Of a DNA stretch of 64,000 nt, positions 8,385 through 61,780 are shown in pieces. Origin of the DNA: Candidatus Thorarchaeota archaeon (GTDB lineage: Archaea > Asgardarchaeota > Thorarchaeia > Thorarchaeales > Thorarchaeaceae); the NCBI GenBank assembly GCA_018238375.1, contig JABCTJ010000008.1, positions 5 through 64,004 of the forward strand, written 5' to 3'. A program made the position numbers and the translations under genes. The notes under the pieces are model-generated. The model ran no database searches. It was not told where the DNA came from and worked only from the letters and a program-made list of their open reading frames with translations. Position 1 is the stretch's first letter. Each line of letters begins with the position of its first letter.

Positions 8385-8526
8385 TGGTGCCGCGAGAGGG
8401 ATTTGAGCCCTCGACTTCGAGATTTCTCATCTCGGGTCAGGCTTGAGATAATGACCCCATGATTTTGACCGGAAATATCCAGCAAGATTATGAGTCTCGC
8501 GCCCCACCAGGCTAGGCTATCGCGGC
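8385..8526 (-). tRNA. tRNA with anticodon CAT (elongator Met or Ile2) and an approximately 65-nt intron at the canonical 37/38 site; CCA encoded
   Basis: The minus strand reads GCCGCGA-TA-GCCT..GGGC-G-CGAGA-CTCATA[intron]A-TCTCG-AAGTC-GAGGG-CTCAAAT-CCCTC-TCGCGGC-A-CCA. A G1:C72 pair and the lack of GGG/CCC in the anticodon stem argue against an initiator. Confidence 0.8.
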
Positions 8527-11942: not shown

Positions 11943-12064
11943 TGGTGCGGGAGGTGGGACTTGAACCCACGGACCCCTACGGGAGCGGATATCTTATTCG
12001 AATGACCCCATATCTTCATACGATCTTAAGTCCGCCGCCTTTGACCAGTCTTGGCTACTCCCGC
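11943..12064 (-). tRNA. tRNA-Leu (anticodon TAA) with an approximately 34-nt intron at 37/38; CCA encoded
   Basis: The minus strand reads GCGGGAG-TA-GCC..GGC-G-GCGGA-CTTAAG[ATCGTATGAAGATATGGGGTCATTCGAATAAGAT]A-TCCGC, followed by the long variable arm TCCCGTAGGGGTCC, then GTGGG-TTCAAGT-CCCAC-CTCCCGC-A-CCA. Confidence 0.85.
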
Positions 12065-12162: not shown

Positions 12163-12271
12163 TGGTGGGGCGGGCCGGATTTGAACCAGCGACCTTCGAG
12201 ACCAACAAGCTTGATGCTCATTGGATTCTCGGTGTAAGCGAGACATCATAGCCGGGCTAGACTACCGCCCC
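12163..12271 (-). tRNA. tRNA-Val (anticodon TAC) with an approximately 31-nt intron in the variable-region side of the anticodon arm; CCA encoded
   Basis: The minus strand reads GGGGCGG-TA-GTCT..TGAT-G-TCTCG-CTTACAC-CGAGA-[ATCCAATGAGCATCAAGCTTGTTGGTCTCGA]-AGGTC-GCTGG-TTCAAAT-CCGGC-CCGCCCC-A-CCA. An alternative fold is discussed in the findings. Confidence 0.65.
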
Positions 12272-27784: not shown

Positions 27785-29704
27785 TCAGGTACCCTCCTGT
27801 TTGATTGCACCTTGTGGACATACAGCAACGCATGTTCCGCAAAAATTACACATTGTCTGATCAATCACTGCCTGTCCAGTTTCCGTATCGAGATACATAG
27901 CTGGACATGACAAGCGATTCAAACAACGTTTGCATGAATTACAGAGTTCAGAATCGACGTAGTAAGGTGGGGGGAACTCGCCAGTCTTACGGCGCTCAGC
28001 GGCTTCAAGGAGTGCACAAGGGGCAATTGAAACTAGTACTGATGGTTTATGATTTTCTCTTGACCATGTGGTCATCTCTCGAACTGCAGCAACAAGACCT
28101 GCTAAGGAGGCGAATGGATCGATTGTCTTCACATATTCCACTCCAAGTCCCTTGCAGACTTTTGCAATGTTGATTGGTGGTACCTTTTCCTGCATTCCTG
28201 TGACACCAGTTCCTGGATGAGGTTGGTGTCCGGTCATTGCAGTTGTGCGATTGTCAAGTATGACAAGACTAATTCTATGCTGATTGTAAACAGCATTGGC
28301 AATCCCAGGTAATCCAGCTGCGAAGAAGGTACTGTCACCTATTGTAGCAACAACATCTTGGTCTGTGACTTCAGCTAGACCACAGGCTGTTGTAATTGAA
28401 GAACCCATGTCGAATAGAATGTCAGCGGTTTCTAATGGTGGTGAAATGCTGAGCGTATAGCACCCGATGTCCGATGGGTAGATTGCTTTTCCACGTGTAG
28501 CTACTCGAATTGCATAGTACGAAGCCCTGTGAGGACATCCAGCACAAAGAAGTGGAGGTCGTGGAGGCAATGCCGAGATTTCACTAGCTTTCTGGTCGAT
28601 TACTTTCCAGTTAATACTCGTATTACGATTCAGAATCTTTGAGAGGGCTTCAATCACAATTCGTGGACTGTATTCGAGCGTTCGAGGGAAGAAACCCTGT
28701 TCTTTACCGAGAATGTTTACCTTGATTCCGTTGAGCTGTGCAATCCTTCTAGCATGTGTTTCCAAGAATGGATCAAGTTCCTCGACTATCACCACTTGCT
28801 TATGATGCTTGAGAAACTTTGATATCATCTTCTCAGGAACAGGATGTGTTATTCCAAGCTTCAAGGTTTCAGCGTCAATGTCTAAAGCTGATAAAGCCTC
28901 AATCACATAATTGTATGAAACTCCACTAGTTATTATTCCCAGATTTCCACTACCAATTGTGAAGTTGAGCTTTGATGATTCTGAGATTTCCATTGCCAGT
29001 TCAATCTGTTTCAAGAGCCAAGAATGGCGAATTCGAGCTACTGAAGGTATTGGCACAAATCTGAATGGGTCTTTGACAAATTCAACCTTCTTTGGTCTGT
29101 CTCGAATCGGGCCGAATGTGACTGGTGACCTAGTATGATTGATTCGAGTGGTTGTACGAAAGAGAATAGGTAGCTCGAGCTTCTCTGAGATTTCGTAAGC
29201 TTGGAGCAGCATTGACTTCGCTTCAGAGGGATCAGACGGTTCTATTAGAGGCATATTACCCATAAGCGCGTAGTAACGAGAATCGTTCTCGTTTTGGGAG
29301 CTCCACATGCTTGGATCGTCAGCAACAACTATGACCATCCCACCTCGAACTCCAACATAAGCTAATGAGAAGAACGGATCGGCTGCTACATTGAGACCGG
29401 GTCCTTTACATACCATCATGGATCGAACGCCAGCTACGGCAGCAGCTCCAGCGACTTCCATTGCAACTTTTTCGTTAGTACTGAATTCGAAATAGAAATC
29501 GGGTATATGTGGCGCCATGAAAGTGAGATTGTTTCCTATCTCACTACTTGGAGTACCAGGGTACAAAGCAACCAGACGTACTCCCGCCTCAAGCACCCCA
29601 CGTGCTATCGATTCGTTGGCAAGTAGAAGTATTTCTTTGCCAACGTTGTCTTCCAGAAGCTGTTTCGGTTTGGTCACTGATTTGCCTCCTTCTCGCATTC
29701 GCAC
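27785..29704 (-). CDS. iorA: Indolepyruvate:ferredoxin oxidoreductase alpha subunit
   Basis: 639 aa. LLLANESIARGVLEAGV, a TPP-binding GDSTFFAAGLPG motif and a C-terminal 2x[4Fe-4S] motif (CNSCKRC...CPA, CNFCGTCVAVCP). Confidence 0.9.
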   Translation of the reverse strand: MRMREGGKSVTKPKQLLEDNVGKEILLLANESIARGVLEAGVRLVALYPGTPSSEIGNNLTFMAPHIPDFYFEFSTNEKVAMEVAGAAAVAGVRSMMVCKGPGLNVAADPFFSLAYVGVRGGMVIVVADDPSMWSSQNENDSRYYALMGNMPLIEPSDPSEAKSMLLQAYEISEKLELPILFRTTTRINHTRSPVTFGPIRDRPKKVEFVKDPFRFVPIPSVARIRHSWLLKQIELAMEISESSKLNFTIGSGNLGIITSGVSYNYVIEALSALDIDAETLKLGITHPVPEKMISKFLKHHKQVVIVEELDPFLETHARRIAQLNGIKVNILGKEQGFFPRTLEYSPRIVIEALSKILNRNTSINWKVIDQKASEISALPPRPPLLCAGCPHRASYYAIRVATRGKAIYPSDIGCYTLSISPPLETADILFDMGSSITTACGLAEVTDQDVVATIGDSTFFAAGLPGIANAVYNQHRISLVILDNRTTAMTGHQPHPGTGVTGMQEKVPPINIAKVCKGLGVEYVKTIDPFASLAGLVAAVREMTTWSRENHKPSVLVSIAPCALLEAAERRKTGEFPPPYYVDSELCNSCKRCLNRLSCPAMYLDTETGQAVIDQTMCNFCGTCVAVCPQGAIKQEGT

Positions 29705-29817
29705 GAATGTTGTCGGGCGAAGAAAGAATCGTTGGTATCAGTCTTGCGGTACTGGACTTTATGGACCCAAAACACTAAACAAAATCGCAAATATGGAAAT
29801 ACAGCCGGTAAATTCCA

Positions 29818-29834
29818 TAGAACACGTGTTCCAA
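29818..29834. promoter_or_regulatory. Palindromic box TAGAACACGTGTTCCAA (copy 1)
   Basis: The core GAACACGTGTTC is a perfect 12-nt palindrome. The 17-mer is identical to the copy at 30098..30114. Confidence 0.7.
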
Positions 29835-29891
29835 GCATTTCGATCACATATTACACAAATAGCTATCCATGTATTCGGCTAATATGACATA

Positions 29892-29916
29892 ACACCCCTT
29901 CATTTCCACTGGAGAA
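29892..29916 (-). repeat. ORB-like element (origin recognition box), G-string distal
   Basis: The minus strand reads TTCTCCAGTGGAAATGAAGGGGTGT: a TCCA-G-TGGA dyad, AAAT, a spacer and GGGGT. Confidence 0.65.
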
Positions 29917-30035
29917 TAGTATGTGAGATGCGTTGGGTGGTTATATATATAATATAATAAAATGGAGATAATCATCGGGTTCGAAAACATCTATATATAC
30001 TTTTCGACATCTATTCTTATCGATATCGCTCTTAT

Positions 30036-30057
30036 TTTCCACTGGAAATACAGGGGT
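30036..30057 (+). repeat. ORB-like element, inverted relative to 29892..29916
   Basis: The plus strand reads TTTCCACTGGAAATACAGGGGT. Confidence 0.65.
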
Positions 30058-30097
30058 TAGAGAGCTGCATTGATCGAAATAAACATGAAATGAGATT

Positions 30098-30114
30098 TAG
30101 AACACGTGTTCCAA
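30098..30114. promoter_or_regulatory. Palindromic box TAGAACACGTGTTCCAA (copy 2)
   Basis: Identical 17-mer to copy 1, placed symmetrically on the other side of the ORB pair. Confidence 0.7.
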
Positions 30115-30151
30115 CAATTGTAATACAATAAATACGAAAACTGGAACAGTC

Positions 30152-30451
30152 TTATGTCACTTCTTCAAGTATTTCGAAGATTCGAATTGTCAGAATATCC
30201 TGATATGAGTTGAAGAGAGAATTAAATTCACCTTGATATTCTCCCGGTACAAAGATCGCAGAGTCAGCAACAGCTTCTGCACCTATGCACTCATCTAGTA
30301 ACCCTGGTTTTCGTTTTTGTTTGATCCCCGTCTTTGTCTTCCAGGAATACAAGAATCCGTAAAGCTCCTTGGTAAAAGAAACCCTTCTGGCATTTCTCTG
30401 ACGAGCATGTTTACAGTCATAGAGATAAACAAAATTTGCCATCTTTCTCAT
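30152..30451 (-). CDS. Small orphan protein (99 aa, or 96 aa from the second Met)
   Basis: An ORF between palindromic boxes 2 and 3. The sequence is MRKMANFVYLYDCKHARQRNARRVSFTKELYGF... and no family is recognised. Confidence 0.45.
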   Translation of the reverse strand: MRKMANFVYLYDCKHARQRNARRVSFTKELYGFLYSWKTKTGIKQKRKPGLLDECIGAEAVADSAIFVPGEYQGEFNSLFNSYQDILTIRIFEILEEVT

Positions 30452-30458
30452 CTAAAAC

Positions 30459-30473
30459 TAGAACACATGTTCT
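30459..30473. promoter_or_regulatory. Palindromic box variant TAGAACACATGTTCT (copy 3)
   Basis: Half-sites AGAACA/TGTTCT. It lies 8 nt upstream of the ATG of the 99-aa ORF (minus strand). Confidence 0.6.
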
Positions 30474-30588
30474 GATTTTTTAGTTCAAGTATTACAGGTA
30501 CAAGAGGGAAGGCTTAAAGCGGAAATGCATTGCTCAACAGCCGCCCCAGTCCTTGGGTCACATTCCCATCTTTCAAGGAGGAAATGTC

Positions 30589-31902
30589 ATGAACATCATT
30601 GGCCTGAGAAAAGAAGAGAAGATGTTCGAAACTAGAGTCCCTGTTGTTCCTGAGCATATCAAGCTCTTGAGCACCAAACATGGGATTCAGTTCGCTGTTG
30701 AACCGAGTAATCAACGCGCTTTTGGACCAGACGAATTTGAAAAAGTTGGCGCGCAGATCAAACCCCTAAAGGGAACAGAAGTTTCTGTGATTCTGGGAGT
30801 GAAAGAGATGCCCAACGACTTCTACGAAAAAGGAAAGACGTACGTTTTCTTCAGCCATACAATCAAGGGCCAGAAATACAATATGCCAATGTTGAAGAAA
30901 ATCATGAACGTAGGTGCAACTCTTATCGATTACGAACGCATTGTGAATGAGAAAGGGTTCAGATTAATCTTCTTTGGCAACTGGGCTGGCCTCGCAGGGA
31001 TGTCCGAAACATTTCGTATTCTGGGCTTAAGACTCGAGGTCGAAGGTATTAAACCGAATCCATTCTCTGGTATGAAACATACTGCACAATACAAAGACCT
31101 TAATGGACTCAAAAAAGGAATCCAAGCATTGGGCAAACGCATCAAAGAACAAGGTCTGCCTGACTCTTTGACACCTTTCATCGTTGGATTTGCAGGATAC
31201 GGGAATGTATCACGGGGTGCCCAAGAAATATTCGACATACTCCCATACGAAACAATAGAACCCAAAAACCTAGCCAATGTTACAGCAAAACGGGATCTGC
31301 TCTACAAATGTGTCTTCAAGGAAGAGCATATGGTAAAGCCGCTAAACTCCTCAGCAAAATTCGAACTCATGGACTATTACGAACATGGTGCTACGAAATA
31401 CAAGGGCAAATTCGAATCTTATATTCCTCATTTGACAGTACTAATAAATTGCATCTACTGGACGAAGAAGTCCCCACGTCTAGTTACAAAAAACTTCATC
31501 CGAAAGCACTGGAATAATTCTAATCGCCGCCTACGAATTGTCGGAGATATATCGTGTGATGTTAACGGCGCAATGGAATTCACTCTTCAGTGTACCGATG
31601 CTGGCGAACCCGCATTCACCTACCTTGTGGATGAAGATCGTGCGGTTTTGGGCGTAGAAGGTAATGGACCAGTTGTCATGGCAGTAGACAATCTCCCCAC
31701 AGAGCTTCCACGCGAATCATCCACTTCATTCAGCGAAACTCTGCTAGATTTCATACCTGCTCTAGCAAAGGCTGATTTCACAGTTCCTTTTAGTCAGCTC
31801 ACGCTTCCCAGAGAGCTCAAGGATGCAACGATTGTGTACAACGGAGAGCTGACCAAGAATTACGAATACCTCAAAAATCACTTGCTAACCAAGGAGAATT
31901 AA
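30589..31902 (+). CDS. Lysine-ketoglutarate reductase-type saccharopine dehydrogenase (AlaDH/PNT fold; LKR half of eukaryotic AASS)
   Basis: MNIIGLRKEEKMFETRVPVVPEHIKLL, TYVFFSHTIKGQKYNMPML, LIDYERIV, FGNWAGLAGM and GYGNVSRGAQEIF are collinear with the LKR domain of animal AASS as I recall it. The ATG at 30589 is preceded by GGAGG. Confidence 0.8.
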   Translation: MNIIGLRKEEKMFETRVPVVPEHIKLLSTKHGIQFAVEPSNQRAFGPDEFEKVGAQIKPLKGTEVSVILGVKEMPNDFYEKGKTYVFFSHTIKGQKYNMPMLKKIMNVGATLIDYERIVNEKGFRLIFFGNWAGLAGMSETFRILGLRLEVEGIKPNPFSGMKHTAQYKDLNGLKKGIQALGKRIKEQGLPDSLTPFIVGFAGYGNVSRGAQEIFDILPYETIEPKNLANVTAKRDLLYKCVFKEEHMVKPLNSSAKFELMDYYEHGATKYKGKFESYIPHLTVLINCIYWTKKSPRLVTKNFIRKHWNNSNRRLRIVGDISCDVNGAMEFTLQCTDAGEPAFTYLVDEDRAVLGVEGNGPVVMAVDNLPTELPRESSTSFSETLLDFIPALAKADFTVPFSQLTLPRELKDATIVYNGELTKNYEYLKNHLLTKEN

Positions 31903-31904
31903 AA

Positions 31905-33221
31905 ATGCAAAAAGTACTCTGTCTTGGTGCGGGTCTCGTAGCCCGCCCGTACATTCAATACTTGTGCAAACATGGATTTCATGTCATTGTGGCCAGTCGA
32001 ACAAAAAGCAAGGCCGAGCGATTGATTGAAGGGTGTAAGAGCGCAGAAGCTGTCGCCCTGAATATCAAGACCGATGATGAACTACTTGACAAGCTAGTTG
32101 CCAAAGCTGACCTGACTTGTTCGTTGCTACCTTACACATATCACGTGAAAGCTGCAAAACTAGCAATCAAATATCGCAAGCCATTCTGCACGACTTCATA
32201 CATTTCTGATGAAATGCAGGCCCTAGATGATGAGGCAAAGAAAGCAAGAATCTTGGTACTGAATGAGTGTGGAGTTGATCCTGGAATCGATCACATGAGT
32301 GCCATGAAGATAATCGATGACATTCACAACAAGGGCGGCAAGGTCATAAGTTTCACATCTTTTACTGGAGGACTTCCTGCTCCTGATGCCAATAACAATC
32401 CATTTGGTTACAAACTCTCTTGGAGTCCAAGAGGCGTTCTTCTTGCAGGCAGAAACGATGCACATTTCCTGCGTGACGGCAAGGATGTAGTGATTCCGGG
32501 TCCTGAACTCTTTGATAATTATGAAATCATGGAGGTTCCAGGTATGGGGAAGTTTGAAGGATATCCCAATAGAGACAGTACATCCTACATTGACATCTAC
32601 AATATATCAGAAACAAAAACAATGCTACGTGGAACCTTCAGAAACCCCGGTTGGTGCAGCACTCTCAAGAAAATTGCAGATTTGGGTCTACTAGAACTTG
32701 ATGAACATGTCTTTGAAAATATGACATACGCAGATATAATGCGTAAGCTGATAGATTCCAAAAATGGCGATATACAAGGCGCAGTTGCTGAAGCAGCCGG
32801 TCTCAAGAAGAGTGACCCAATCATTTCCCGTCTGGATTGGCTTGGCCTCTTCAATGATACAGAGATTCCTTCGAATGTTACAACATATCTCGATGCACTA
32901 TGTCATCTCTTTGAAGAGAAGCTGCAGTATGCTCCTGGAGAACGTGACATGATAGTCATGCATCACGAGTTTATAGCAGAGTACAGTGATAGGAAGGAGA
33001 AGATAACATCAACACTGATTGACTATGGTATTCCAAATGGTGACAGCTCAATGTCAAGAACTGTTGCACTACCTGTAGCAGTAGCAAGCAGAATGATACT
33101 TGAAGGGAGAATCAACCTAACCGGAGTCCACAGACCAATCATATCTGAACTATACGAGCCGATTCTAAACGAACTTGAAAGCCTTGGAATCAAGCTTGAA
33201 GATCGCATTACAGCACTGTGA
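31905..33221 (+). CDS. Saccharopine dehydrogenase (NADP+, L-glutamate-forming; SDH half of AASS)
   Basis: 438 aa. KVLCLGAGLVARPYIQYL, GVDPGIDHMSAMKIID, GGLPAP, NPFGYKLSWSPRGVL and EGYPNRDSTSY. It starts 2 nt after the LKR stop. Confidence 0.85.
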   Translation: MQKVLCLGAGLVARPYIQYLCKHGFHVIVASRTKSKAERLIEGCKSAEAVALNIKTDDELLDKLVAKADLTCSLLPYTYHVKAAKLAIKYRKPFCTTSYISDEMQALDDEAKKARILVLNECGVDPGIDHMSAMKIIDDIHNKGGKVISFTSFTGGLPAPDANNNPFGYKLSWSPRGVLLAGRNDAHFLRDGKDVVIPGPELFDNYEIMEVPGMGKFEGYPNRDSTSYIDIYNISETKTMLRGTFRNPGWCSTLKKIADLGLLELDEHVFENMTYADIMRKLIDSKNGDIQGAVAEAAGLKKSDPIISRLDWLGLFNDTEIPSNVTTYLDALCHLFEEKLQYAPGERDMIVMHHEFIAEYSDRKEKITSTLIDYGIPNGDSSMSRTVALPVAVASRMILEGRINLTGVHRPIISELYEPILNELESLGIKLEDRITAL

Positions 33222-33307
33222 GCTAGAACCCCCAACTCGGGGCCACTCACAAGCTACCCCCTCAAGAATAGAACAATCCATGCAATATAGCTACTCTGAG
33301 GAACAGC

Positions 33308-33934
33308 TTACTTACCAATTTGTATCTGAATCGCTGCCAATACCTCTTCTGCTCTCTCAATGTCGCTTTGAACCTCTGGCAGCTCTGTCTTGAGACGGTA
33401 TGTATAACCTGATCTGTTGCCATGTCTCTCTAGATGCGCTTCACCGTTATTCCACATCCGTGCGAGGTACGTTGATGCAGTACTTTTCGGCAAGTCTTCC
33501 TCAAACGTAGATTCATAGATCTCTGCCACATCCAATGATGAGAACTTTCCATGTTTGAACGAGGCATAGATTATCATCTGCATCTTCTCATAGTTGCTCA
33601 TAGATTCATAGCTAATGTTTTCGAAATTAACATCTGCCAACTCTTCAACTGTTGGGGCGAATATGCAGCCTGTACTAGTTTCTAAGAACACCTTAAACTT
33701 TCCAACCATCTCTTCGGGATTCCCTTTTACTTGGAAGCTTGATTCTTCTCCAGTCGATTCATCAGAAACTAGAATCTTGAAATCAAAAGGCGATTGGGTA
33801 AGTGAAAGAATCTTTTGAAACCGATTGAGAGCTTCATCTGGCCTGACATATTTACATTGAAAGATCTCGCGCAAACCAGGTCCTGAGCTATATGTGAACT
33901 CGTAAACGTAATTGGTTCTTTCACCTTCCGCCAT
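33308..33934 (-). CDS. Hypothetical protein with a C-terminal winged-helix-like domain
   Basis: 208 aa. ..LDVAEIYESTFEEDLPKSTASTYLARMWNNGEAHLERHGNRSGYTYRLK fits helix-turn-helix plus a wing. Confidence 0.45.
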   Translation of the reverse strand: MAEGERTNYVYEFTYSSGPGLREIFQCKYVRPDEALNRFQKILSLTQSPFDFKILVSDESTGEESSFQVKGNPEEMVGKFKVFLETSTGCIFAPTVEELADVNFENISYESMSNYEKMQMIIYASFKHGKFSSLDVAEIYESTFEEDLPKSTASTYLARMWNNGEAHLERHGNRSGYTYRLKTELPEVQSDIERAEEVLAAIQIQIGK

Positions 33935-34138
33935 GATTTCATCATTCCCCGAATAAGCGGTCTATATTATTGCTATTCACAACGAATTACACACATTCCA
34001 CAAATAAATGTGAGTATGTGAATTACCAATACCTGGATAAGCGCAAGATATTGCGCCTGTATACGTTCAAGACCCCCCTGTCACGATTTTCCTGTGATGG
34101 CATGTTCTACACTCCGTAATGAACATAATAAGGCCTAT

Positions 34139-34163
34139 CCGCCCCTTAACTGGAAAAATAAGC
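34139..34163 (-). repeat. Degenerate ORB-like half element
   Basis: The minus strand reads CTTATTTTTCCAGTTAAGGGGCGG. The half-dyad TTCCAG and the G-string are retained and the TGGAAA half is missing. Confidence 0.35.
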
Positions 34164-34244
34164 GATTATTCCATATCTTCAAGCATTCACTAGAATATGT
34201 GGCTTGTGAATAGCCTATAGGGGATAAAGAGCTCTTCTTACTCA

Positions 34245-34268
34245 GTTCCAGTGGAAACGGAGGGGTGT
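34245..34268 (+). repeat. ORB-like element (best match in the window)
   Basis: The plus strand reads GTTCCAGTGGAAACGGAGGGGTGT: dyad, AAAC, GGA and GGGGT. Confidence 0.7.
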
Positions 34269-34414
34269 GTCCATTCACAAGGATGAACGGCATTATGAAC
34301 CCCTTTTACATACAATAAAGGCTCATAGCTCCCTATTTCTCTGGACAATTCACAATTATGGCGCCATTCACAACAGAATGATGTGAATTAGTGTTAATGT
34401 GGTGAATATGATAA

Positions 34415-35425
34415 TCAAAGGCGTATTAAATAATCGTCCCAACTTTCTCCAAGCACTATCTGGCTGAACTCTTCTCCAGATCGTCTATCCATAACGGATT
34501 CAAGCCGTCCTTTGGCTTTCACGTCCATTCCCTTTGAAACCTGCTCTGTGAAACGTCCTCGGTAGCTCACAAGTTTCCTTAGATCGTCAAGCCTGTCGCA
34601 TTGAACCCCATACGCACATGGAGTGAAGATTGAATCATGATCATCTGTCACATGACACTTGACTGTTAGCGTTCCTTCATTATGAATCGTAAAATCCCCA
34701 TACTTGTACCCAATCTCATCCGGTGATTTGACCATCCGAATGAAGAACTCATACCCGCCGGAGAGTCCTTGTAAAACCTTGTTTGATTCAACCTTTCGCA
34801 AAACATCACGCCATCGAGGATTTTCACCCCATCTGAATGTTACATGCTTATCCAGTAGCTCGCCTGCATACCAACCCAAGTTCCCAATCGCATGAAACTG
34901 CTCCTTCAGAATGGAGTGTACCTTTCTTGCTGGCTTTTCGCCATAAATTACGAGGTCCACGTCAGATTCACCCGAAGCAAGCCCAACCAGTTGAGACCCT
35001 GTAAGCCCAATGGCCCCCCATTCAATTCCCGTTATGTCAACCAATGTTTGAGCCAAGTCCAAAGATGCCTGCTGCAATGAGCTTGAATGTCGTCCCATAT
35101 CTCCTAACTGGCGTAGATAATCAACTGGGTCAAGGACAAATGCAATCCTATTCAAGGGCACAGCCTGCAATTGCCGTCCACGGGCTTCATCAAACCAGAG
35201 GTATTCGCTATGCTCTCTTTGTAGATAGTCTTCACGTTCTTTCAGCGCGGTGATTTTTCTATATCGAACCCCACTTGAAGAAACACGATTTCCATTCTGG
35301 GCAGGCAAATACCTCAGGTATGCGACTACTCGATTCTTGGGATGAACGACACCTTTCACCTCAAAGATGTGATCGTCATCAGTGACAAGGAAAAACCCCT
35401 CAACAGTTTGAAGATTCAATACCAA
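34415..35425 (-). CDS. Pol-beta-superfamily nucleotidyltransferase domain protein
   Basis: 336 aa. GLTGSQLVGLASGESDVDLVIYG matches the G-S...D-x-D nucleotidyltransferase motif. The rest is unassigned. Confidence 0.55.
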   Translation of the reverse strand: MVLNLQTVEGFFLVTDDDHIFEVKGVVHPKNRVVAYLRYLPAQNGNRVSSSGVRYRKITALKEREDYLQREHSEYLWFDEARGRQLQAVPLNRIAFVLDPVDYLRQLGDMGRHSSSLQQASLDLAQTLVDITGIEWGAIGLTGSQLVGLASGESDVDLVIYGEKPARKVHSILKEQFHAIGNLGWYAGELLDKHVTFRWGENPRWRDVLRKVESNKVLQGLSGGYEFFIRMVKSPDEIGYKYGDFTIHNEGTLTVKCHVTDDHDSIFTPCAYGVQCDRLDDLRKLVSYRGRFTEQVSKGMDVKAKGRLESVMDRRSGEEFSQIVLGESWDDYLIRL

Positions 35426-54283: not shown

Positions 54284-55477
54284 ATGCCCCGCGATTATGT
54301 TGAGGAAGAACTGGGTCGACACAGTGTATTCAAGGCAGAACAATTTCTATCCATAGACTATGTCCCTGAAGTTCTTCCACATCGAGAACTAGAACTAAGG
54401 ACTTTGGCACAGAGCTTCAAGACACTCATAACAACTCCAGGGCGCACCAGTCAGCGATTTATAATTGAAGGTCCAGTCGGGACCGGCAAGACTGCCGTTG
54501 CGAAACGTTTCACAGAACAAATGGTTCAAGCCGCTGAGAGACGCGGAATTCGTCTGCATAAGCTTCACATCAACTGCAGGATTAACAAGAGTGAGTACCT
54601 AGTATACTTACGAATGCTAAGAGAATTTAAACCGAAATTTCCCCGTCGAGGCCATTCACCCGAAGAGCTTTTGCAAATGCTAGTTGAAGTCCTAGACATG
54701 GAGGACCGGTATCTGCTCCTGATTCTAGATGAACTTGACTACTTCATCAATCAGAGGGGGGCTAACATTCTATATGACCTTACACGTCTAATGGATGATC
54801 GATTGAATGCGCCACAACGGCTTTCCATGATTGCGGTAGGACGAAACATCCCTCTAGACCGGGACACCCTCGATTCAAGTATTTTAAGCACGCTCCAGCG
54901 GAATCTTATGCGGTTTGAGAGATACAGTTCAGAAGCTCTCTATGCTATTCTGGAAGATAGAGTAAAGATTACTTTCAAGAATGACACAATAATGGACGAA
55001 ACACTGCAGGTAATTTCTGACATCGCATCAGAACATGGAGATGCCAGATACGCCATCGAACTACTGTGGCGAGCAGGAAAACAGGCTGATCGTAGCCGAG
55101 TTAGAGTCGTAATTCCCGATTATGCTCGCCAAGCAAAGGTTGACACACATCCCGAGCTCCGGAAGGAAATTTTCGCAACACTTCCCATTCACAACAAGCT
55201 AGTCCTTCTGGCTGCAGCGAGACAACTCAAGGAAGTTAGGAGTGCTTACGTGACAATGGGGGAGGTTGAAGAGATGTATAGAGCAGTCTGCGAGGAGTAT
55301 GGCGAAGAGCCACGGGCACACACTCAAGTCTGGGAATGGGTTCAAAATCTTAACGCACATGGTGTAGTAGATACAAAGCGCTCTGGAGCGGGCCAAAGAG
55401 GGCAGACCACACTCATTGGCCTTTCTGATGTGCCTGCCGAGATGTTAGAACGATTTCTTTTGGAACTGCTAGAATAA
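54284..55477 (+). CDS. cdc6: Orc1/Cdc6 replication initiator
   Basis: 397 aa. YVPEVLPHRELELRTL, IIEGPVGTGKTAVAKRF, LLILDELD, GDARYAIELL and a C-terminal winged helix. Confidence 0.9.
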   Translation: MPRDYVEEELGRHSVFKAEQFLSIDYVPEVLPHRELELRTLAQSFKTLITTPGRTSQRFIIEGPVGTGKTAVAKRFTEQMVQAAERRGIRLHKLHINCRINKSEYLVYLRMLREFKPKFPRRGHSPEELLQMLVEVLDMEDRYLLLILDELDYFINQRGANILYDLTRLMDDRLNAPQRLSMIAVGRNIPLDRDTLDSSILSTLQRNLMRFERYSSEALYAILEDRVKITFKNDTIMDETLQVISDIASEHGDARYAIELLWRAGKQADRSRVRVVIPDYARQAKVDTHPELRKEIFATLPIHNKLVLLAAARQLKEVRSAYVTMGEVEEMYRAVCEEYGEEPRAHTQVWEWVQNLNAHGVVDTKRSGAGQRGQTTLIGLSDVPAEMLERFLLELLE

Positions 55478-55485
55478 TCCATGAT

Positions 55486-55782
55486 GTGGTGACCCCTATG
55501 GATTTGCAAATACAGACCAAGATTCCCATTGAAGAGCTATTCTCTTCGAGGGGGCGAATCAAGATAATCAAAGAACTTGCAACATCAAGCGAGCTAAACA
55601 TCACAGAACTATGCAAACGCGTAGGCCTTAATCATAGCTCAACAAAACAACATCTCACGGTCCTTATGAAAACCGGCCTTATTGAAGAGAAGGTCTTTGG
55701 AAGAATCAAGATCTATAGATATCGCATCGAGGACATACGTGCCCGTTCTCTTAGGAATCTCATTGATTTGTGGGAATCATAA
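55486..55782 (+). CDS. ArsR-type winged-helix transcriptional regulator
   Basis: 98 aa. RIKIIKELATSSELNITELCKRVGLNHSSTKQHLTVLMKTGLIEEK. Confidence 0.7.
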   Translation: MVTPMDLQIQTKIPIEELFSSRGRIKIIKELATSSELNITELCKRVGLNHSSTKQHLTVLMKTGLIEEKVFGRIKIYRYRIEDIRARSLRNLIDLWES

Positions 55783-55798
55783 TGGAGACCGGAGTCAA

Positions 55799-56629
55799 TT
55801 GACCTCTTACATTGGACGACTTTTCTATCTCGGGGATGAATATCATGGGTCCCAGTGGCAACCTGGTCTACGTACAGTTCAGGGCGAGCTTATCGATGCC
55901 TTAGCTGCATGGAGCGGAGAAACTCATTCCCCCTCCACAGTTCAGCTTGCTGGCAGGACTGATAGAGGAGTGCACAGCATCGGTCAGATAGTGTTAGTCC
56001 AGACGGGCAAGCGTTTCGATGTTGATGGTGTAAACAAACACTTACCAGATGACATCAGACTGTGGGCACATGCTGAAGTTCCCAAAGATTTCAAACCGCG
56101 CTACAATATACTCATGCGACATTACAGGTACTATCTTGATACCACAAAACTCAATCTTGATTTTTCCTTGATGAAACAAGCTACACAACTCTTAACGGGG
56201 TCACACAATTTTTCGTTGTTGTCAAAGCCTGATGGAAACCGTGGCACATCTGCCACAATCCTGAATATATGCCTAAAAGCATCAAACGGGACCCTCTCGA
56301 TTGATGTCTTTGGCATTAGTTTTCTCTGGAAACTTGTTCGAAAAATGGTTTCTCTATTGACCCGGATTGGGAATGGCGAACTTCAGCTGAACGCAGTGCG
56401 CAAGCTCTTGGAACAAACCAACGTACTTCCCGGGGGAATCAACCCCTCTCCTCCAGAGAGTCTTGTTCTGTTGGATGTAATAGTGCCGATTCGTATGAAT
56501 GTGAGTAAATACGGTAGACGAAGAATGCAAAAGGAACTCGCAAGACGACTTGGCTATCTTCACAGATCTACTATGATTCTTTCCGCTCTTACCGAGCACT
56601 TCGACTCCGGTCGAAGGCACCACTCTTGA
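55799..56629 (+). CDS. truA: tRNA pseudouridine synthase A
   Basis: It has YLGDEYHGSQWQPG and GRTDRGVHSIGQIV (catalytic Asp). The ORF opens at 55682, but homology starts near the in-frame TTG at 55799, so the start is uncertain. Confidence 0.8.
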   Translation: MTSYIGRLFYLGDEYHGSQWQPGLRTVQGELIDALAAWSGETHSPSTVQLAGRTDRGVHSIGQIVLVQTGKRFDVDGVNKHLPDDIRLWAHAEVPKDFKPRYNILMRHYRYYLDTTKLNLDFSLMKQATQLLTGSHNFSLLSKPDGNRGTSATILNICLKASNGTLSIDVFGISFLWKLVRKMVSLLTRIGNGELQLNAVRKLLEQTNVLPGGINPSPPESLVLLDVIVPIRMNVSKYGRRRMQKELARRLGYLHRSTMILSALTEHFDSGRRHHS

Positions 56630-57809
56630 TTTCCAGCCAGCGAGCAAAGACTCCTTTCAGATTCGGTTCTCGCTCAATTATTTTCTCAATCGTATCCTGA
56701 TGAGTGCGAGCGCCTCTTCTAACTGAAACCCCCGTAAATTCCGTAAGTTTCGTGAGAATTTGCTTCTTTTTCTCCTGCTTTCTGTTTCCTTGCCAGACCA
56801 ACAATGGCCAATTGGGTTCAGTATAATCAACATGTCGAAATGGAGATTCTTGTCGACTTGTCGCTACTCCTGCAGAGAGGAAGTCATAGACATAAGAGAG
56901 CAGTTTCCAGTTCTGCTTTCGCATTATTCGTCCCAGAGTGAGGTCTCCAAGAGATAGCGCCTCAAATCCCAAGTCCAATTCCTTTGTACTCCTAAGATGG
57001 AGATGCACATTCTGCTCAAGCCACAGCAGTAGGCTCTCATGATCGACATCAGCTTCAGACACAACTCTCCGTGCTGCAACTGAGTCAGTAGTCATGAAGA
57101 GTCGACTAAGTGTTTCCTTCACATTGCGCTTGATGTCCCGCGAGGGAAGTTCTCCCTCTAGAGGATATCCTCCTCTCAGAATAGCTTCCAAGTCTGAAAT
57201 CGCAGCACGAAGGTCTCCGGCAGAGCGATCTGCTATCTCCTCTAGAATCTTATCTTTCACAAGTGCATCTTGACTATCAGCTATCCCCTTCAACACACCC
57301 ATAACATCACTGGGTTCTAGAGGTTCAAAGACCAAAACAAGAGAGTTTTTTCTAAGGTCTTTCAAACGGGGACTACTAGGATTATTCGCTGTCATCACAA
57401 TTGGATGTACAGACTCTGCAATCACATTCAGTATTGCGCCAACTCCTCCTCGATCACTTGTTCCCGAAAGCCCATCCACTTCGTCGAGCATAATTATCCT
57501 CAGACGTCCATCTAGAGTCTGCTGCGTGGCAGCTATCCAAACAGTTGTTCCTATACTCCCCTTGTTGCGCTTATCACTTGCATTGAATTCAACTAGTTCC
57601 ATGTCTAGGTCGTGGCTCAATGCACCAATGGATGCTGTCTTTCCTACTCCCGGCGGACCGATAAGGAGTATTGCCTTTTTTTTAGGAATTCCTCTCCTCC
57701 AAGATGATATCCACTCCCTCAGCGTGCGAATTGTATCTGTATTCCCCACAAGCTGCTCCAAGCTTTTTGGCCTGTATCTCTCTGGCCATGGAAGGCTTTC
57801 TCTGCTCAC
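56589..57809 (-). CDS. rfcL: Replication factor C large subunit
   Basis: 406 aa. PWPERYRPKSLEQLVGN, LLIGPPGVGKTA and IMLDEVDG. Confidence 0.88.
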   Translation of the reverse strand: MSRESLPWPERYRPKSLEQLVGNTDTIRTLREWISSWRRGIPKKKAILLIGPPGVGKTASIGALSHDLDMELVEFNASDKRNKGSIGTTVWIAATQQTLDGRLRIIMLDEVDGLSGTSDRGGVGAILNVIAESVHPIVMTANNPSSPRLKDLRKNSLVLVFEPLEPSDVMGVLKGIADSQDALVKDKILEEIADRSAGDLRAAISDLEAILRGGYPLEGELPSRDIKRNVKETLSRLFMTTDSVAARRVVSEADVDHESLLLWLEQNVHLHLRSTKELDLGFEALSLGDLTLGRIMRKQNWKLLSYVYDFLSAGVATSRQESPFRHVDYTEPNWPLLVWQGNRKQEKKKQILTKLTEFTGVSVRRGARTHQDTIEKIIEREPNLKGVFARWLEIKSGAFDRSRSAR

Positions 57810-57815
57810 GTTCTG

Positions 57816-58760
57816 TCACAGCCCCATAAAGGCAAGTAATGCAGCCAGCTGAACTTCTCCATCTGCTCCCTCTGATATTCTAAACTCTACCTCTGCAGTC
57901 CTTTCTAGCACATTCATTTTTCTTTGCTCAGGGAGTTCGGACGACAGTACCTCTCGGTGAATTTGTCGAACCAAATCTACGGATGAAACGCCCTGATGAT
58001 ACGTCAGGTCCTTCAAGATATCAAGAGCCTCGTGATACCTTTTCTCCTGGGACGCACTCAGCATACTCCTAATTCTCTTAGGATCAGCTCGTCCAGAAAT
58101 TGCGTAGATAACATCGTCGGTGACTTTCTCACCTGTAGATGCTGATGCCTGTAACAAGTTGATTGCAGCTCTCATATCACCCTTGGAAAGATAGAGGATC
58201 GCATCAATTCCCTTAGTGCCCAGCTTGACTCCTTCTGCCTTTGCAATGTATTTCAGTCTCCCTAATATCGCTTCATCGCTAAGTCGAGCGAACTTGAAGA
58301 TAACACATCTTGATTGAATCGGCGGAATTATCCGGCTTGAGTAGTTGCATAATAGAATCATTCTACAGGACGCCGCATATGACTCCATGGTTCGTCTCAG
58401 AGCGTGTTGGGCATCTCCAGTCAGATGATCGGCCTCATCTAAGGCAAGAATCCTGAATGGGGCATCACCAGATGGCATCGCCCTTGCGAAGTTCTTAATC
58501 TGATTTCTCACGACATCGATGCCCCTTTCGTCACTCGCATTCAGTTCCATAAAGTTACGATCAAAGGAATCGCCAAAGAGGTCTCTTGCCATTGCCATGA
58601 CTGCAGTTGTCTTACTGGTCCCAGGAGGACCTGCGAATAGACAGTGAGGTACTGCTTTTGCCTTAACGAATCTGATTAACCTATCGACCACAGGCTCTTG
58701 CCCGATGATATCATTCAGTGTCTGAGGGCGATATTTTTCAGTCCATAGATCGACATCCAT
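57816..58760 (-). CDS. rfcS: Replication factor C small subunit
   Basis: 314 aa. LWTEKYRPQTLNDIIGQ, FAGPPGTSKTT, LDEADHLT and SRC motif (QSRCVIF). No intein. Confidence 0.92.
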   Translation of the reverse strand: MDVDLWTEKYRPQTLNDIIGQEPVVDRLIRFVKAKAVPHCLFAGPPGTSKTTAVMAMARDLFGDSFDRNFMELNASDERGIDVVRNQIKNFARAMPSGDAPFRILALDEADHLTGDAQHALRRTMESYAASCRMILLCNYSSRIIPPIQSRCVIFKFARLSDEAILGRLKYIAKAEGVKLGTKGIDAILYLSKGDMRAAINLLQASASTGEKVTDDVIYAISGRADPKRIRSMLSASQEKRYHEALDILKDLTYHQGVSSVDLVRQIHREVLSSELPEQRKMNVLERTAEVEFRISEGADGEVQLAALLAFMGL

Positions 58761-58934
58761 TCAAAATCCCTTCCCAAATGCAAAGTTGAAATTCCTGTCT
58801 TCTGTAGAGAGGAGTGATAGACACACTCTGCAAGACCCTTAAAAGATTCACCGGAGAGTCTTGATAGCTTTGCTACGTTCCCTATACATATGAACTGCAA
58901 CTAGTCTAGCATTCTCATACAAACAAGCATCTCT

Positions 58935-59567
58935 TTGTCACAATTCCCGTGCCATTTTACAGCAATGTCTTTATCACATTGGAATGCAGTTGCATGTAGT
59001 GCAACCATCATGAAGGTCCAAAGCGAATCTGCAGAAGTTATTGACCGCTTCAGAATGCTGTTCATGAATGACTCTCGAACGTGTACATTCAAGGAACAAG
59101 CCCCAGAGCTAATAATCGGAGGCCGAAAACTTGGTCCTTTTCAATCCGGTGAGCAAGCAAACCTACCGAATTGGGTCATAGAGCAACTCGTTATACATGG
59201 ATTGGCTCACATAGCTCCTGAAGATGCCTACGAATCGTTGAGACGCCTCCTGAATCTTCACCGGGAGGAGGAGAAACAACCTCACAAGCTTCAGACATTT
59301 CATCCATTTCTGTATGCCGCGCTCAACCGCAAGATGCTTCGACTCCAAGAGGACAGGACCTCAATGGATCCGCGCAGGTACGAGGAGATTGAGAGGATGC
59401 AGCGCATGATTCCGTTTTTAGTAGAAACTCGACTCTCCAAAATAATCCGCGTGGCCAAATCGGGTGCATATCAGGAAAAACGGAAGCAGATGACAAATGA
59501 AGAACGATGGTTGTGTGAGGAGATCGCAGAGCTACTCTCTGTTTGGCGCGCAAAAGTAATGGAATAG
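58935..59567 (+). CDS. GINS subunit (B-domain-first order, Gins23-like)
   Basis: A beta-rich N-part (PELIIGGRKLGPFQSGEQANLPNWVIEQLVIHGLA) is followed by a helical part (..YEEIERMQRMIPFLVETRLSKII). It lies directly upstream of mcm. The start is uncertain (possibly 59010). Confidence 0.65.
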   Translation: MSQFPCHFTAMSLSHWNAVACSATIMKVQSESAEVIDRFRMLFMNDSRTCTFKEQAPELIIGGRKLGPFQSGEQANLPNWVIEQLVIHGLAHIAPEDAYESLRRLLNLHREEEKQPHKLQTFHPFLYAALNRKMLRLQEDRTSMDPRRYEEIERMQRMIPFLVETRLSKIIRVAKSGAYQEKRKQMTNEERWLCEEIAELLSVWRAKVME

Positions 59568-59657
59568 ATCCCATGAAATACAGGAGCTTAAATACAATTC
59601 CAATGGACTTAACGATGAGGGCTGAGCAGATGCTCGGCCGAATCTCTCTTTCGTGCA

Positions 59658-61754
59658 ATGACTTCGAGGCGCAGTCTGATGTCAGGGCTTAATGATGAAG
59701 GTCCACAAGAACGATTCGAAGAGTTCCTTCGTACCTACAAGGATGAGGTAGGTAAGCTTGTTTATTGGTCACGTTTGCAGCAAATGTCTATTAACGATGA
59801 GTCTTCAATTGTTGTGAACTTTCAAGATTTGGCCAGCTTTGACAGTGTTTTCATAACGCTGGCCACAGAGGATCCCATGCAGTTCTTGAAGATGATTGAT
59901 AGTGCCCTAGTTTCAGTTTTAAAAATCGAGGACCCAGAGTATGTCAGCGCAATCGACACAAATCTGCTGAAAGTTCGAATTATTGATTATCCTGAGCATA
60001 TTCCGCTTAGATCTATTCGTTCGAAACATATCGGACGACTGTTGCACATCAGTGGCATCATGATGAGGGCGAGCATAGTCAAGCCGCTTCTAGTTGAAGC
60101 AATGTTCAGATGTCGCATCTGTGGTGGAGATATCCCTCAGACTCAAGAGGACGGAAGATACACAGAACCAGCACTTTGTCCTGTTTGCGGAAAGAAGACA
60201 GCTATGAGGCTTATCCCAGAACTATCCCATTTCATCGATTGGCAAAAGGTGAGAATTCAGGAATCCCCCGATGAGCTACCTCCAGGACAGATGCCGCGAT
60301 CCGTTGATGTTATTTTTGAGGGTGACATCGTTGACATATCAAGACCAGGCGATTTCGTAAAAGTAACAGGAATTCTTGAAACAACACCAGATTTCACCAG
60401 ACGTGGGAGCAGACTGGCAACGTTCAATGTATTTATCGATGCAAACGGGGTAGAGATTACAGAGAAGGAATACGAGCAGTTGGAAATCTCTGAGGACGAT
60501 GAGAAGAAGATTCGGGAGCTGGCGGAAGATCAGTATGTTTACGAGCGAATAAATGCTTCAATTGCCCCATCCATTCATGGCCACGAACAAATCAAGGAGT
60601 CAATTGCTCTTCTTCTTTTTGGCGGAGTTGAGAAAAAGCTGCCAGACGGCACCAGACTCAGAGGCAAATCGAATATCCTGATGATTGGGGACCCTGGCAC
60701 CGGGAAGAGTCAAATTCTCAAGTTCGTTTCTGGTTTGGCTGCACGAGCGTTGTACACTTCTGGCAAAGGTACTACTGCTGCAGGTCTTACTGCTGCAGTA
60801 CTCCATGATACCGAAACAGGTGCTATGACTCTGGAAGCAGGGGCATTAGTATTGGCTGACCAAGGAATCGCATGTATCGACGAGTTTGATAAAATGGACC
60901 CGAATGATAGGAATGCAATTCATGAGGCCATGGAACAACACACGGTCAGTATCGCGAAAGCTGGAATCATAGCAACATTGAATGCAAGAACATCAATATT
61001 GGCAGCAGCAAATCCAACGCTTGGCAGATATGAGCCTTCGCTTTCTGTACAGGACAATATACGACTTCCATTCACAATCCTCTCACGGTTTGACCTGATG
61101 TGGATTATGGTCGATACAGTGGAAGCCACCAAAGACCGAGAGCTGGCACAGTTCATTCTTAGTTTACATCAGAAGAAAAAGCCATCAACCAAGTCTGCAA
61201 CGCCGCCACTCTCCCCTGAATTTCTGAAGAAATACATTGGTTATGCCAATCGATACGTTGTGCCTCAACTCACTTCTGAAGCCGCAGAAGTGATTGAGAA
61301 CTTCTATGTTGACCTTCGAAAGACTGCTGAGGGCGGTGCCGCACCTGTTCCTATAACTGCACGTCAACTGGAGTCCTTGGTTCGTCTTGCTGAGTCAAGA
61401 GCTCGGATGGCGCTGAGGTCTAAGGTGAACAAGGAAGATGCGCAGGCTGCAGTGCGGCTAATGGAGGCGTCACTGCGAATGGTTGCACTCGATAGTATCA
61501 CTGGCAAAATCGACATAGACCGTCTAGTATCAAAAATGAGCGCATCCCAGCGTAGTTCTTCTGATATTATCCTCAAAGTGATGAAAGATTTGGAATCTGA
61601 AGGAACATCCACAGTCGATGAAGAGGCGCTGCTTCAACGAGTGCAATCAATGGGTCTCCCCCGCGATAGAGCGGAACAAGTAATCAAAAAACTAGTTGCA
61701 GAAGGCATCCTCTTTCATCCTAGGGAGGGCAAGGTTAGACGGGCCCAGAGTTGA
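59658..61754 (+). CDS. mcm: MCM replicative helicase
   Basis: 698 aa. A zinc motif (CRICGG...CPVCG), Walker A MIGDPGTGKSQ, Walker B CIDEFDKM, the arginine finger SRFDL and a C-terminal winged helix. No intein. Confidence 0.95.
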   Translation: MTSRRSLMSGLNDEGPQERFEEFLRTYKDEVGKLVYWSRLQQMSINDESSIVVNFQDLASFDSVFITLATEDPMQFLKMIDSALVSVLKIEDPEYVSAIDTNLLKVRIIDYPEHIPLRSIRSKHIGRLLHISGIMMRASIVKPLLVEAMFRCRICGGDIPQTQEDGRYTEPALCPVCGKKTAMRLIPELSHFIDWQKVRIQESPDELPPGQMPRSVDVIFEGDIVDISRPGDFVKVTGILETTPDFTRRGSRLATFNVFIDANGVEITEKEYEQLEISEDDEKKIRELAEDQYVYERINASIAPSIHGHEQIKESIALLLFGGVEKKLPDGTRLRGKSNILMIGDPGTGKSQILKFVSGLAARALYTSGKGTTAAGLTAAVLHDTETGAMTLEAGALVLADQGIACIDEFDKMDPNDRNAIHEAMEQHTVSIAKAGIIATLNARTSILAAANPTLGRYEPSLSVQDNIRLPFTILSRFDLMWIMVDTVEATKDRELAQFILSLHQKKKPSTKSATPPLSPEFLKKYIGYANRYVVPQLTSEAAEVIENFYVDLRKTAEGGAAPVPITARQLESLVRLAESRARMALRSKVNKEDAQAAVRLMEASLRMVALDSITGKIDIDRLVSKMSASQRSSSDIILKVMKDLESEGTSTVDEEALLQRVQSMGLPRDRAEQVIKKLVAEGILFHPREGKVRRAQS

Positions 61755-61780
61755 ACACAGAAGTCACAACAGGTGTCCCA

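Follow-up and report, generated by a model that had tools for sequence, protein, structure and literature searches.

No known prokaryotes are closer relatives of eukaryotes than the Asgard archaea, whose replication proteins have been intensively studied. Where does replication of an Asgard chromosome begin? The question is raised by a locus in a stretch of 64,000 nucleotides from a Candidatus Thorarchaeota archaeon (GenBank assembly GCA_018238375.1, contig JABCTJ010000008.1), referred to here as the window, in which two inverted copies of an archaeal origin recognition box (ORB) bracket an AT-rich core. By exact protein matches, the window is also represented on contigs of several metagenome-assembled genomes (MAGs), for example GCA_018238215.1 (contig JABCTT010000009.1). 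In an initial annotation, based on the letters of the window, the ORB pair was proposed as a candidate replication origin unlinked to orc1/cdc6. From the sequence comparisons presented here, it is likely, with a probability of roughly 85 %, that the ORB pair marks the chromosomal replication origin of this archaeon, of the canonical type in which two ORBs flank a duplex-unwinding element (DUE).

Sequence and architecture of the ORB pair

The predicted elements, in order along the window, are as follows.

29892-29916, minus strand: ORB1, predicted origin recognition box, TTCTCCAGTGGAAATGAAGGGGTGT; the dyad TCCAGTGGAAA lies beside the core and the G-string GGGGT is distal.
29917-30035, no strand assigned: AT-rich core of 119 bp, presumed duplex-unwinding element, with conserved motifs AAAATGGAGATAA (29959-29971) and TATATATAC (29992-30000; consensus TATTTATA).
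30036-30057, plus strand: ORB2, predicted origin recognition box, TTTCCACTGGAAATACAGGGGT; inverted with respect to ORB1, with the G-string distal to the core.
34245-34268, plus strand: ORB3, a lone ORB and the best conserved of the three, GTTCCAGTGGAAACGGAGGGGTGT; in the same orientation as ORB2 and 4.2 kb to its right.

The sequences and coordinates of the inverted pair were reproduced from the initial annotation, as was the presence of TTATATATATAATATAATAAAAT and CTATATATAC in the 119 bp between the ORBs. In a repeat search of the window, the two arms are returned as a 25-nt inverted repeat, 84 % complementary and 114 nt apart. The published archaeal ORB consensus is CTTCCAGTGGAAACGAAAGGGGT and that of the Methanomassiliicoccales is GTTCCAGTGGAAATGG-AGGGGTA (PMC4153887, Table 2). 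All three ORBs of the window fit both, with a spacer one base shorter than in the archaeal consensus, supporting the earlier description of the pair as near-consensus. That description was limited to two ORBs, both of which stand; the third full ORB at 34245-34268 had been overlooked.

The pattern TCCANTGGAAAN{2,8}GGGG is matched three times in the window, where 100 shuffles give an expected number of 0.00. All three matches are within 4.4 kb of one another. When two mismatches are tolerated in the dyad, nothing beyond the three ORBs is found in the window. The same looser pattern was applied to 558 kb from 41 metagenomic loci containing orc1 homologues, where it gives only two matches; each is located just within the coding sequence of orc1 and lacks the ORB consensus. 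The scan suggested previously as a check on clustering therefore places the ORBs of the window together, with no real match around the orc1 homologues, and the dispersed inverted pairs that a family of miniature inverted-repeat transposable elements (MITEs) would produce are not seen in either set of sequences.

The ORBs are inverted around the AT-rich core with their G-strings distal, as had been described, and face away from each other in an origin-like manner, 190-330 bp from the start of the neighbouring gene iorA. Based on nearest-neighbour energies calculated over the whole window, the least stable 60-bp duplex (start 29942) and the least stable 100-bp duplex (start 29940) are both in this core, approximately 4.4 standard deviations from the mean. 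In the loci of 49 Thorarchaeota species, the mean AT content is 71 % for the core and 56 % for the flanks, ORB1 and ORB2 are separated by 120-132 bp (median 125), and the alignment contains the conserved blocks AAAAATGGAGATAA and TATTTATA. An open reading frame (ORF) of 32 codons (29962-30059), running from the ATGGAGAT motif through ORB2, was rejected as a coding sequence; its length varies between 6 and 59 codons among the species, some of which lack the motif. Since the length of this small ORF is not conserved, the conserved blocks of the core are DNA elements.

Conservation across the Thorarchaeota

The gene for saccharopine dehydrogenase (31905-33221) lies between the ORB pair and ORB3, and 80 loci around its homologues, with up to 10 kb of flanking sequence on each side, were compared. 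In the closed Thorarchaeota chromosome CP070658.1, the iorA/alaDH locus is at about 1.807 Mb. About 50 Thorarchaeota species, in which the saccharopine dehydrogenase is 68-96 % identical to that of the window, keep all three ORBs in the same relative positions and orientations. The pair is present in the loci of 49 species, which make up the set used for alignment of the core. Measured from saccharopine dehydrogenase in the approximately 50 species, ORB1 (minus strand) is about 1.95-2.05 kb upstream, ORB2 (plus strand) about 1.8-1.9 kb upstream, and ORB3 (plus strand) about 2.27-2.35 kb downstream. Over about 55 loci, the position of ORB3 is 2.26-2.6 kb downstream of the start of the gene. The consensus sequences are TTTCcAGTGGAAATgAAGGGGTgTT for ORB1 and TTTCtAgTGGAAACaAaGGGGT for ORB2, each from 50 species, and TTCCAcTGGAAACGAAGGGGTGT for ORB3. 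Motif, architecture, and spacing are therefore conserved across the class.

Between the dyad and the G-string, every ORB retains a spacer of its own, and in none of the 50 species are the spacers of ORB1 and ORB2 identical. This is the behaviour expected of separate protein sites, and not of paired arms in an RNA stem or a transposon. Loci from Hermodarchaeota, Odinarchaeota, Thermoplasmata, and bacteria share the two metabolic genes but contain no ORB, nor either of the genes p99 and p208 that neighbour the ORBs in the Thorarchaeota.

Strand composition on the two sides of the pair

Raw GC skew in the window changes to negative values beyond about 33 kb, but this signal is confounded by gene orientation. 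Third codon positions were used with a fitted coding-strand term. The best single change-point of this orientation-corrected skew at third codon positions (GC3 skew) is the interval between iorA and a gene resembling alanine dehydrogenase (alaDH-like), which contains the ORB pair; none of 500 permutations of gene order gave a change as strong. At fourfold-degenerate sites, the orientation-corrected skew of the plus strand in the window is +0.05 to the left of the pair and -0.13 to the right. The loci of 37 of 39 Thorarchaeota species show the same signs, positive left of the pair and negative right of it, with means of +0.09 and -0.14. The initial annotation had proposed GC skew as a check on the origin, and in this local sequence the switch falls at the ORB pair.

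When the loci of 37 species are divided into five segments, the mean plus-strand skew is +0.14 and +0.12 in the two segments left of the pair, -0.20 in the segment from the pair to ORB3, and -0.10 and -0.09 in the two segments beyond ORB3. The change of sign between the left side and the segment from the pair to ORB3 places the skew step at the pair and not at ORB3. ORB3 was considered as the point at which forks diverge and rejected, based on the segment between the pair and ORB3 already being negative, the sign of the right-hand side, in 36 of the 37 species. Opposite strand composition has accumulated on the two sides of the ORB pair over evolutionary time. A recent inversion is unlikely to be behind the switch, as the junction of iorA, the pair, p99, and the alaDH-like gene is conserved class-wide. 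There is a possible second breakpoint in GC3 skew at about 57.7-58.9 kb, near the boundary between the RFC and GINS genes, which involves three to four genes and is not seen at fourfold sites.

If forks leave from the ORB pair, the sign of the skew makes the leading strand C-rich. Such inverted polarity has been reported for four haloarchaea with experimentally mapped origins, the polarity rule of bacteria and Pyrococcus being the opposite (PMC1868953).

The presumed initiator and the flanking genes

The genes closest to the pair, and the one that is presumed to encode its initiator, are listed here.

27785-29704, minus strand: iorA, the left neighbour of the ORB pair.
30152-30451, minus strand: p99, an ORF of 99 aa encoding a small Thorarchaeota-specific protein, the right neighbour of the pair.
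54284-55477, plus strand: orc1/cdc6, the only one in the window, with Pfam domains Cdc6_C, Cdc6_lid, and AAA.

The location of the pair between iorA and an orphan gene of 99 aa, and the distance of about 24 kb to the only orc1/cdc6 gene of the window, were both as originally annotated. The closest solved relatives of the orc1 product are 1FNN, Sulfolobus Orc1-1 (2QBY_A, 2e-44), and Aeropyrum ORC1 (2V1U), the latter two having been solved bound to origin DNA, and lower scores are obtained against Orc1-3 and ORC2. Based on this similarity, the orc1 product is presumed to be the initiator that reads the ORBs, and to be of the Orc1-1 type. Upstream of orc1 in the window there is a tRNA-Gly and no ORB, which agrees with the earlier observation of nothing ORB-like in this region. 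Nor is there an ORB within 10 kb of orc1 in any of the 41 loci, and the absence of ORBs beside orc1 is therefore general in this group of orthologues.

The description of the pair as unlinked to orc1/cdc6 holds in that the two are not adjacent; it had been missed that orc1 is in a nearby replisome cluster. The gene heads this cluster (54284-64000), where it is followed by genes for an ArsR-type HTH_5 protein (55486-55782), truA, RFC-L, RFC-S, GINS, MCM (59658-61754), and the start of Hel308. The match of 58935-59567 to GINS (Sld5) is weak. The cluster is 24-34 kb from the ORB pair.

In archaeal origins, ORBs are inverted around an AT-rich element; the AAA+ domain of the initiator binds the G-string and two inverted initiators each load a hexamer of MCM (PMC7776575). 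The motif, the architecture, the conservation, and the skew switch are observed here, and by analogy with other archaea we infer Orc1 binding, helicase loading, and firing at the pair. Each ORB would be occupied, always in the same polarity, by one monomer of the Orc1-1-type protein encoded 24 kb away, with the winged helix on the TCCAnTGGAAA dyad facing the core and the AAA+ domain on the outward GGGGT string. As the G-strings point outward and it is the AAA+ domain that binds the G-string (PMC7776575), it is the winged helices that would face the core. Each of the two inverted initiators would then load one MCM hexamer onto the 119-bp core, which as the most easily melted DNA of the window would open, and forks would depart in both directions.

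Palindromes bracketing the pair

Outside the ORBs, the pair is bracketed by a further repeat, for which these copies are present.

29818-29834, no strand assigned: left flanking palindrome, an exact copy of a 17-mer, with core GAACACGTGTTC at 29820-29831.
30098-30114, no strand assigned: right flanking palindrome, an exact copy of the same 17-mer, with core GAACACGTGTTC at 30100-30111.
30459-30475, no strand assigned: third, degenerate copy, GAACACATGTTC at 30461-30472, in the divergent promoter region of p99 and the alaDH-like gene.

The two identical copies of the 17-mer TAGAACACGTGTTCCAA had been recognized as bracketing the module and are exact at both positions; the palindromic nature of their core and the third copy had not been seen. 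Allowing up to three mismatches, the 17-mer has five matches in the window against 0.12 expected. The palindrome GAACACGTGTTC is near-invariant on either side of the ORB pair in the 49-species alignment, and the third copy is kept about 1440 bp upstream of the start of saccharopine dehydrogenase in nearly all Thorarchaeota loci. With up to one mismatch, there are two to four copies of GAACACGTGTTC in each 21-kb locus. Almost all of them either adjoin the outer ends of ORB1 and ORB2 or belong to the divergent promoter of p99 and the alaDH-like gene. The distance from palindrome to ORB varies among species.

Two rearranged species show which elements travel together. In locus L066 (15000-15620), the block of p99, palindrome, ORB pair, palindrome, and iorA has been inverted and relocated to the other side of ORB3, and in locus L047 (6400-8560) the ORB pair and p99 are separated by an inserted gene of 442 aa. 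In both species, the pair keeps its palindromes and iorA, and in L047 the right palindrome is kept beside ORB2 and not beside p99. Since the palindromes move with the pair in these species, they belong to the origin module or are at least tightly coupled to it. The copy in the promoter, just a few bases ahead of the start codon of p99, points to a dimeric transcription factor. There is no support for p99 itself as the protein that binds the palindromes; its modelled fold is ferredoxin-like and has no helix-turn-helix.

The ORB3 region and p208

To the right of saccharopine dehydrogenase, ORB3 is located in a second intergenic region with repeats of its own, beside a lineage-specific gene.

33935-34414, no strand assigned: intergenic region around ORB3, in which ATTCAC(A) repeats of either orientation form an array; the block CAAATAAGTGTGAGTATGTGAATTA at 34000-34025 is near-invariant.
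33308-33934, minus strand: p208, encoding a protein specific to the Thorarchaeota, in which an N-terminal alpha/beta domain is followed by a winged helix at the C-terminus.

Nine copies of ATTCAC are found in the 480 bp of this region, compared with 0.86 per kb window-wide, and across 46 species the mean in the region is 7.3 against 0.39 expected. The block at 34000-34025, of 25 bp, is almost invariant across the species alignment. There is no segment of low stability in the ORB3 region, based on the duplex energies of the window, and no skew step there in the 37 species. A stretch considered as an inverted partner for ORB3 is degenerate (CACAGGAAAATCGTGACAGGGGGGT, minus strand, 34069-34098), about 146 bp to the left, and is not conserved in other species, thus ORB3 is regarded as lone. 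ORB3 may be an auxiliary site for Orc1.

There are 306 homologues of p208, with at least 72 % identity among the 120 listed. The family is confined to Thorarchaeota-type genomes and always adjoins the ORB3 region. No match to p208 was found in Pfam, nor by sequence in the PDB. In its AlphaFold2 (AF2) model, which has a predicted local distance difference test (pLDDT) score of 76.6, the winged helix matches PadR, MarR, RosR, and the C-terminal domain of Cdt1 (E about 4e-3 to 1e-2), with Cdt1 no closer than the others; these are generic winged-helix matches. Remote homologues align only with the C-terminal winged-helix domain and are uncharacterised. A candidate for the protein that binds the ATTCACA array is p208.

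The palindromes and ORB3 with its ATTCACA array are conserved accessory elements, and their sequences may be recognized by other DNA-binding proteins. It is conceivable, though rather doubtful, that the origin is composite, and that the palindromes and the satellite ORB in the array beside p208 would be sites for extra factors that license, insulate, or time firing; neither element has a counterpart in the origin descriptions of the papers searched. Such an origin would go further than the archaeal model with one initiator, and WhiP/Cdt1 at Sulfolobus oriC3 would be a loose parallel. Alternatively, the palindromes and the ORB3 array could be ordinary operators of the neighbouring genes of amino-acid catabolism.

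Evidence against an origin and alternative explanations

Several observations weigh against an origin at the ORB pair. The pair is 24 kb from the nearest replication gene, orc1, and thus lacks an adjacent initiator gene; most archaeal origins adjoin the gene for the initiator, which is usual, not obligatory. The sign of the skew is contrary to the rule of bacteria and Pyrococcus, under which it would mark a terminus, and loci L048, L049, and L066 are without the skew switch. The 39 species compared for skew are mutually related and are not fully independent replicates, and skew was read locally, over the 64 kb of the window and 21 kb for each related species. The case for an origin is computational throughout. 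With regard to L048, L049, and L066, recent rearrangement or differing use of origins could explain the missing switch.

How else could the elements be accounted for? Orc1 paralogues can regulate transcription in some archaea, and the ORBs could be operators through which Orc1/Cdc6 controls the transcription of iorAB, p99, and p208 without any replication being initiated at this site. The pair is upstream of iorA and ORB3 is upstream of p208, and the same palindromes that flank the pair are in the promoter of p99 and the alaDH-like gene, such that transcription control and these elements are intertwined. However, operators would not account for the flip in fourfold-site skew at the pair, which is independent of gene orientation and present in 37 of the 39 species, nor for a spacer of 120-132 bp that is AT-rich and contains the least stable DNA of the window; the distance to the iorA start and the ORBs facing apart are also as at origins. 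Operators without initiation are thus very unlikely. The skew flip could instead mark a replication terminus, or another chromosome-organising boundary at which the ORBs do not initiate, because the plus strand changes from G-rich to C-rich from left to right, which fits a terminus by the bacterial and Pyrococcus rule (PMC1868953). Skew alone cannot separate an origin from a terminus, and it is the ORBs and the unwinding element that decide for an origin: pairs of ORBs around a DUE define archaeal origins (PMC7776575, PMC4164010) and are not known at termini, and the proven haloarchaeal origins have the inverted polarity (PMC1868953). In addition, 66 % of the genes on the left side by length (16.7 kb versus 8.6 kb) are co-oriented with a leftward fork. 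A terminus or boundary at this position is therefore highly improbable.

At first sight, inverted arms of 25 nt with direct 17-mers outside them resemble the terminal inverted repeats of a transposable element and its target-site duplications, and the repeats could be the ends of a miniature element, or the origin of an integrated plasmid or virus, with no role in chromosomal replication. Yet each gene neighbourhood has a single copy, whose syntenic position is shared by about 50 species, no others are present in the 64-kb window or the 558 kb of related sequence, and the arms do not evolve in concert, as is evident from their spacers. The 17-mers are themselves palindromes, have three to four copies, and vary in their distance from the ORBs, and when the ten genes around the pair were screened against Pfam no integrase or mobile-element gene was found. 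A mobile origin for the locus is hardly credible. The complementarity of the arms, together with the high nucleotide conservation of the intergenic sequence, could also point to a structured non-coding RNA with a stem formed from the two arms. Against this, there is no Rfam match in 29600-34500 even at E values up to 1, differences between the arms, including those of the spacers, are never compensated, and the parts that are conserved are exactly the ORB consensus of unrelated archaea. An RNA of this kind has a negligible chance of being the explanation, and a replication origin at the ORB pair is the reading preferred here.

Comparison with known origins

The replication origin proposed for the Thorarchaeota is of a kind already known, the canonical ORB-type origin. 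With the canonical oriC of archaea, as in Pyrococcus, Sulfolobus (oriC1), Aeropyrum (oriC1), and Haloferax (oriC1), it shares the ORB consensus of dyad and G-string, two inverted ORBs around an AT-rich element, an intergenic location at a skew switch, and an encoded initiator of the Orc1-1 type. It differs from these in being located not beside the initiator gene but between iorA and a lineage-specific small gene, in having a single ORB on each side, with no array of mini-ORBs seen, and in the bracketing GAACACGTGTTC palindromes, which are not in the origin descriptions found in the papers searched.

The ORBs of the predicted origins of the Methanomassiliicoccales, GTTCCAGTGGAAATGG-AGGGGTA, are near-identical to those of the Thorarchaeota (PMC4153887, Table 2). 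They occur in inverted pairs 39-256 bp apart and also as isolated ORBs, comparable to ORB3; however, their pairs adjoin orc1/cdc6.1 (PMC4153887) whereas those of the Thorarchaeota do not, and the lone ORB of the Thorarchaeota is in a second repeat array. In the haloarchaea Haloferax volcanii and Halobacterium NRC-1, ORBs are likewise inverted around a DUE and the leading strand is C-rich (PMC1868953), although these have an extended halophile-specific G-string, origins adjacent to orc genes, and many orc paralogues. Sulfolobus oriC3, with the Cdt1-like winged-helix initiator WhiP (PMC4164010), is similar to ORB3 and its second set of repeats beside the winged-helix gene p208. The similarity does not extend to sequence, as p208 has no detectable relation to WhiP or Cdt1 and its fold matches winged helices generically, and unlike oriC3 the ORB3 region is without a DUE or skew switch.

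In summary of these comparisons, four differences set the locus apart from its known counterparts: an initiator gene that is not adjacent, one ORB per side, bracketing palindromes together with a satellite ORB array, and inverted skew polarity. No description of an ORB-type origin for Asgard archaea was found in full-text searches of papers, although automated databases such as DoriC may list a prediction for the closed Thorarchaeota genome. A recent survey of Asgard replisomes leaves origins untreated (PMC12680538), and for the closed Odinarchaeum chromosome, GC skew was the sole basis of orientation (PMC9246712). The present locus gives a class-wide conserved origin in which the predicted initiator sites are defined at single-base resolution. 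It indicates that at least the Thorarchaeota carry the classical sequence hallmarks of ORB-type origins, as opposed to a sequence-independent, eukaryote-like specification of origins. It also supplies a DNA substrate for reconstituting the loading of MCM by Asgard Orc1 in vitro, and lets closed Asgard genomes and metagenomic growth-rate (peak-to-trough) estimates be anchored. Clues to how initiation might be controlled in this particular lineage are offered by the inverted polarity of the skew, the palindromes around the pair, and ORB3 with its array.

Other features of the window

The longest ORF of iorA has its start codon too far upstream. For p99, the true start is likely to be the second ATG, at 30442, giving a protein of 96 aa. 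It has 211 homologues, all of them unannotated or from Thorarchaeota, and its AF2 model (pLDDT 86.5) has a ferredoxin-like fold with weak similarity to Cas2, Lrp-RAM, and PII. The gene is beside the ORB pair in nearly all species, the exception being L047, and its link to the origin is only positional. Elsewhere in the window, there are Rfam tRNA matches of 106-139 nt at 8388-8526, 11946-12064, and 12166-12271, all on the minus strand and without an ARAGORN call; these are probably intron-containing tRNA genes.

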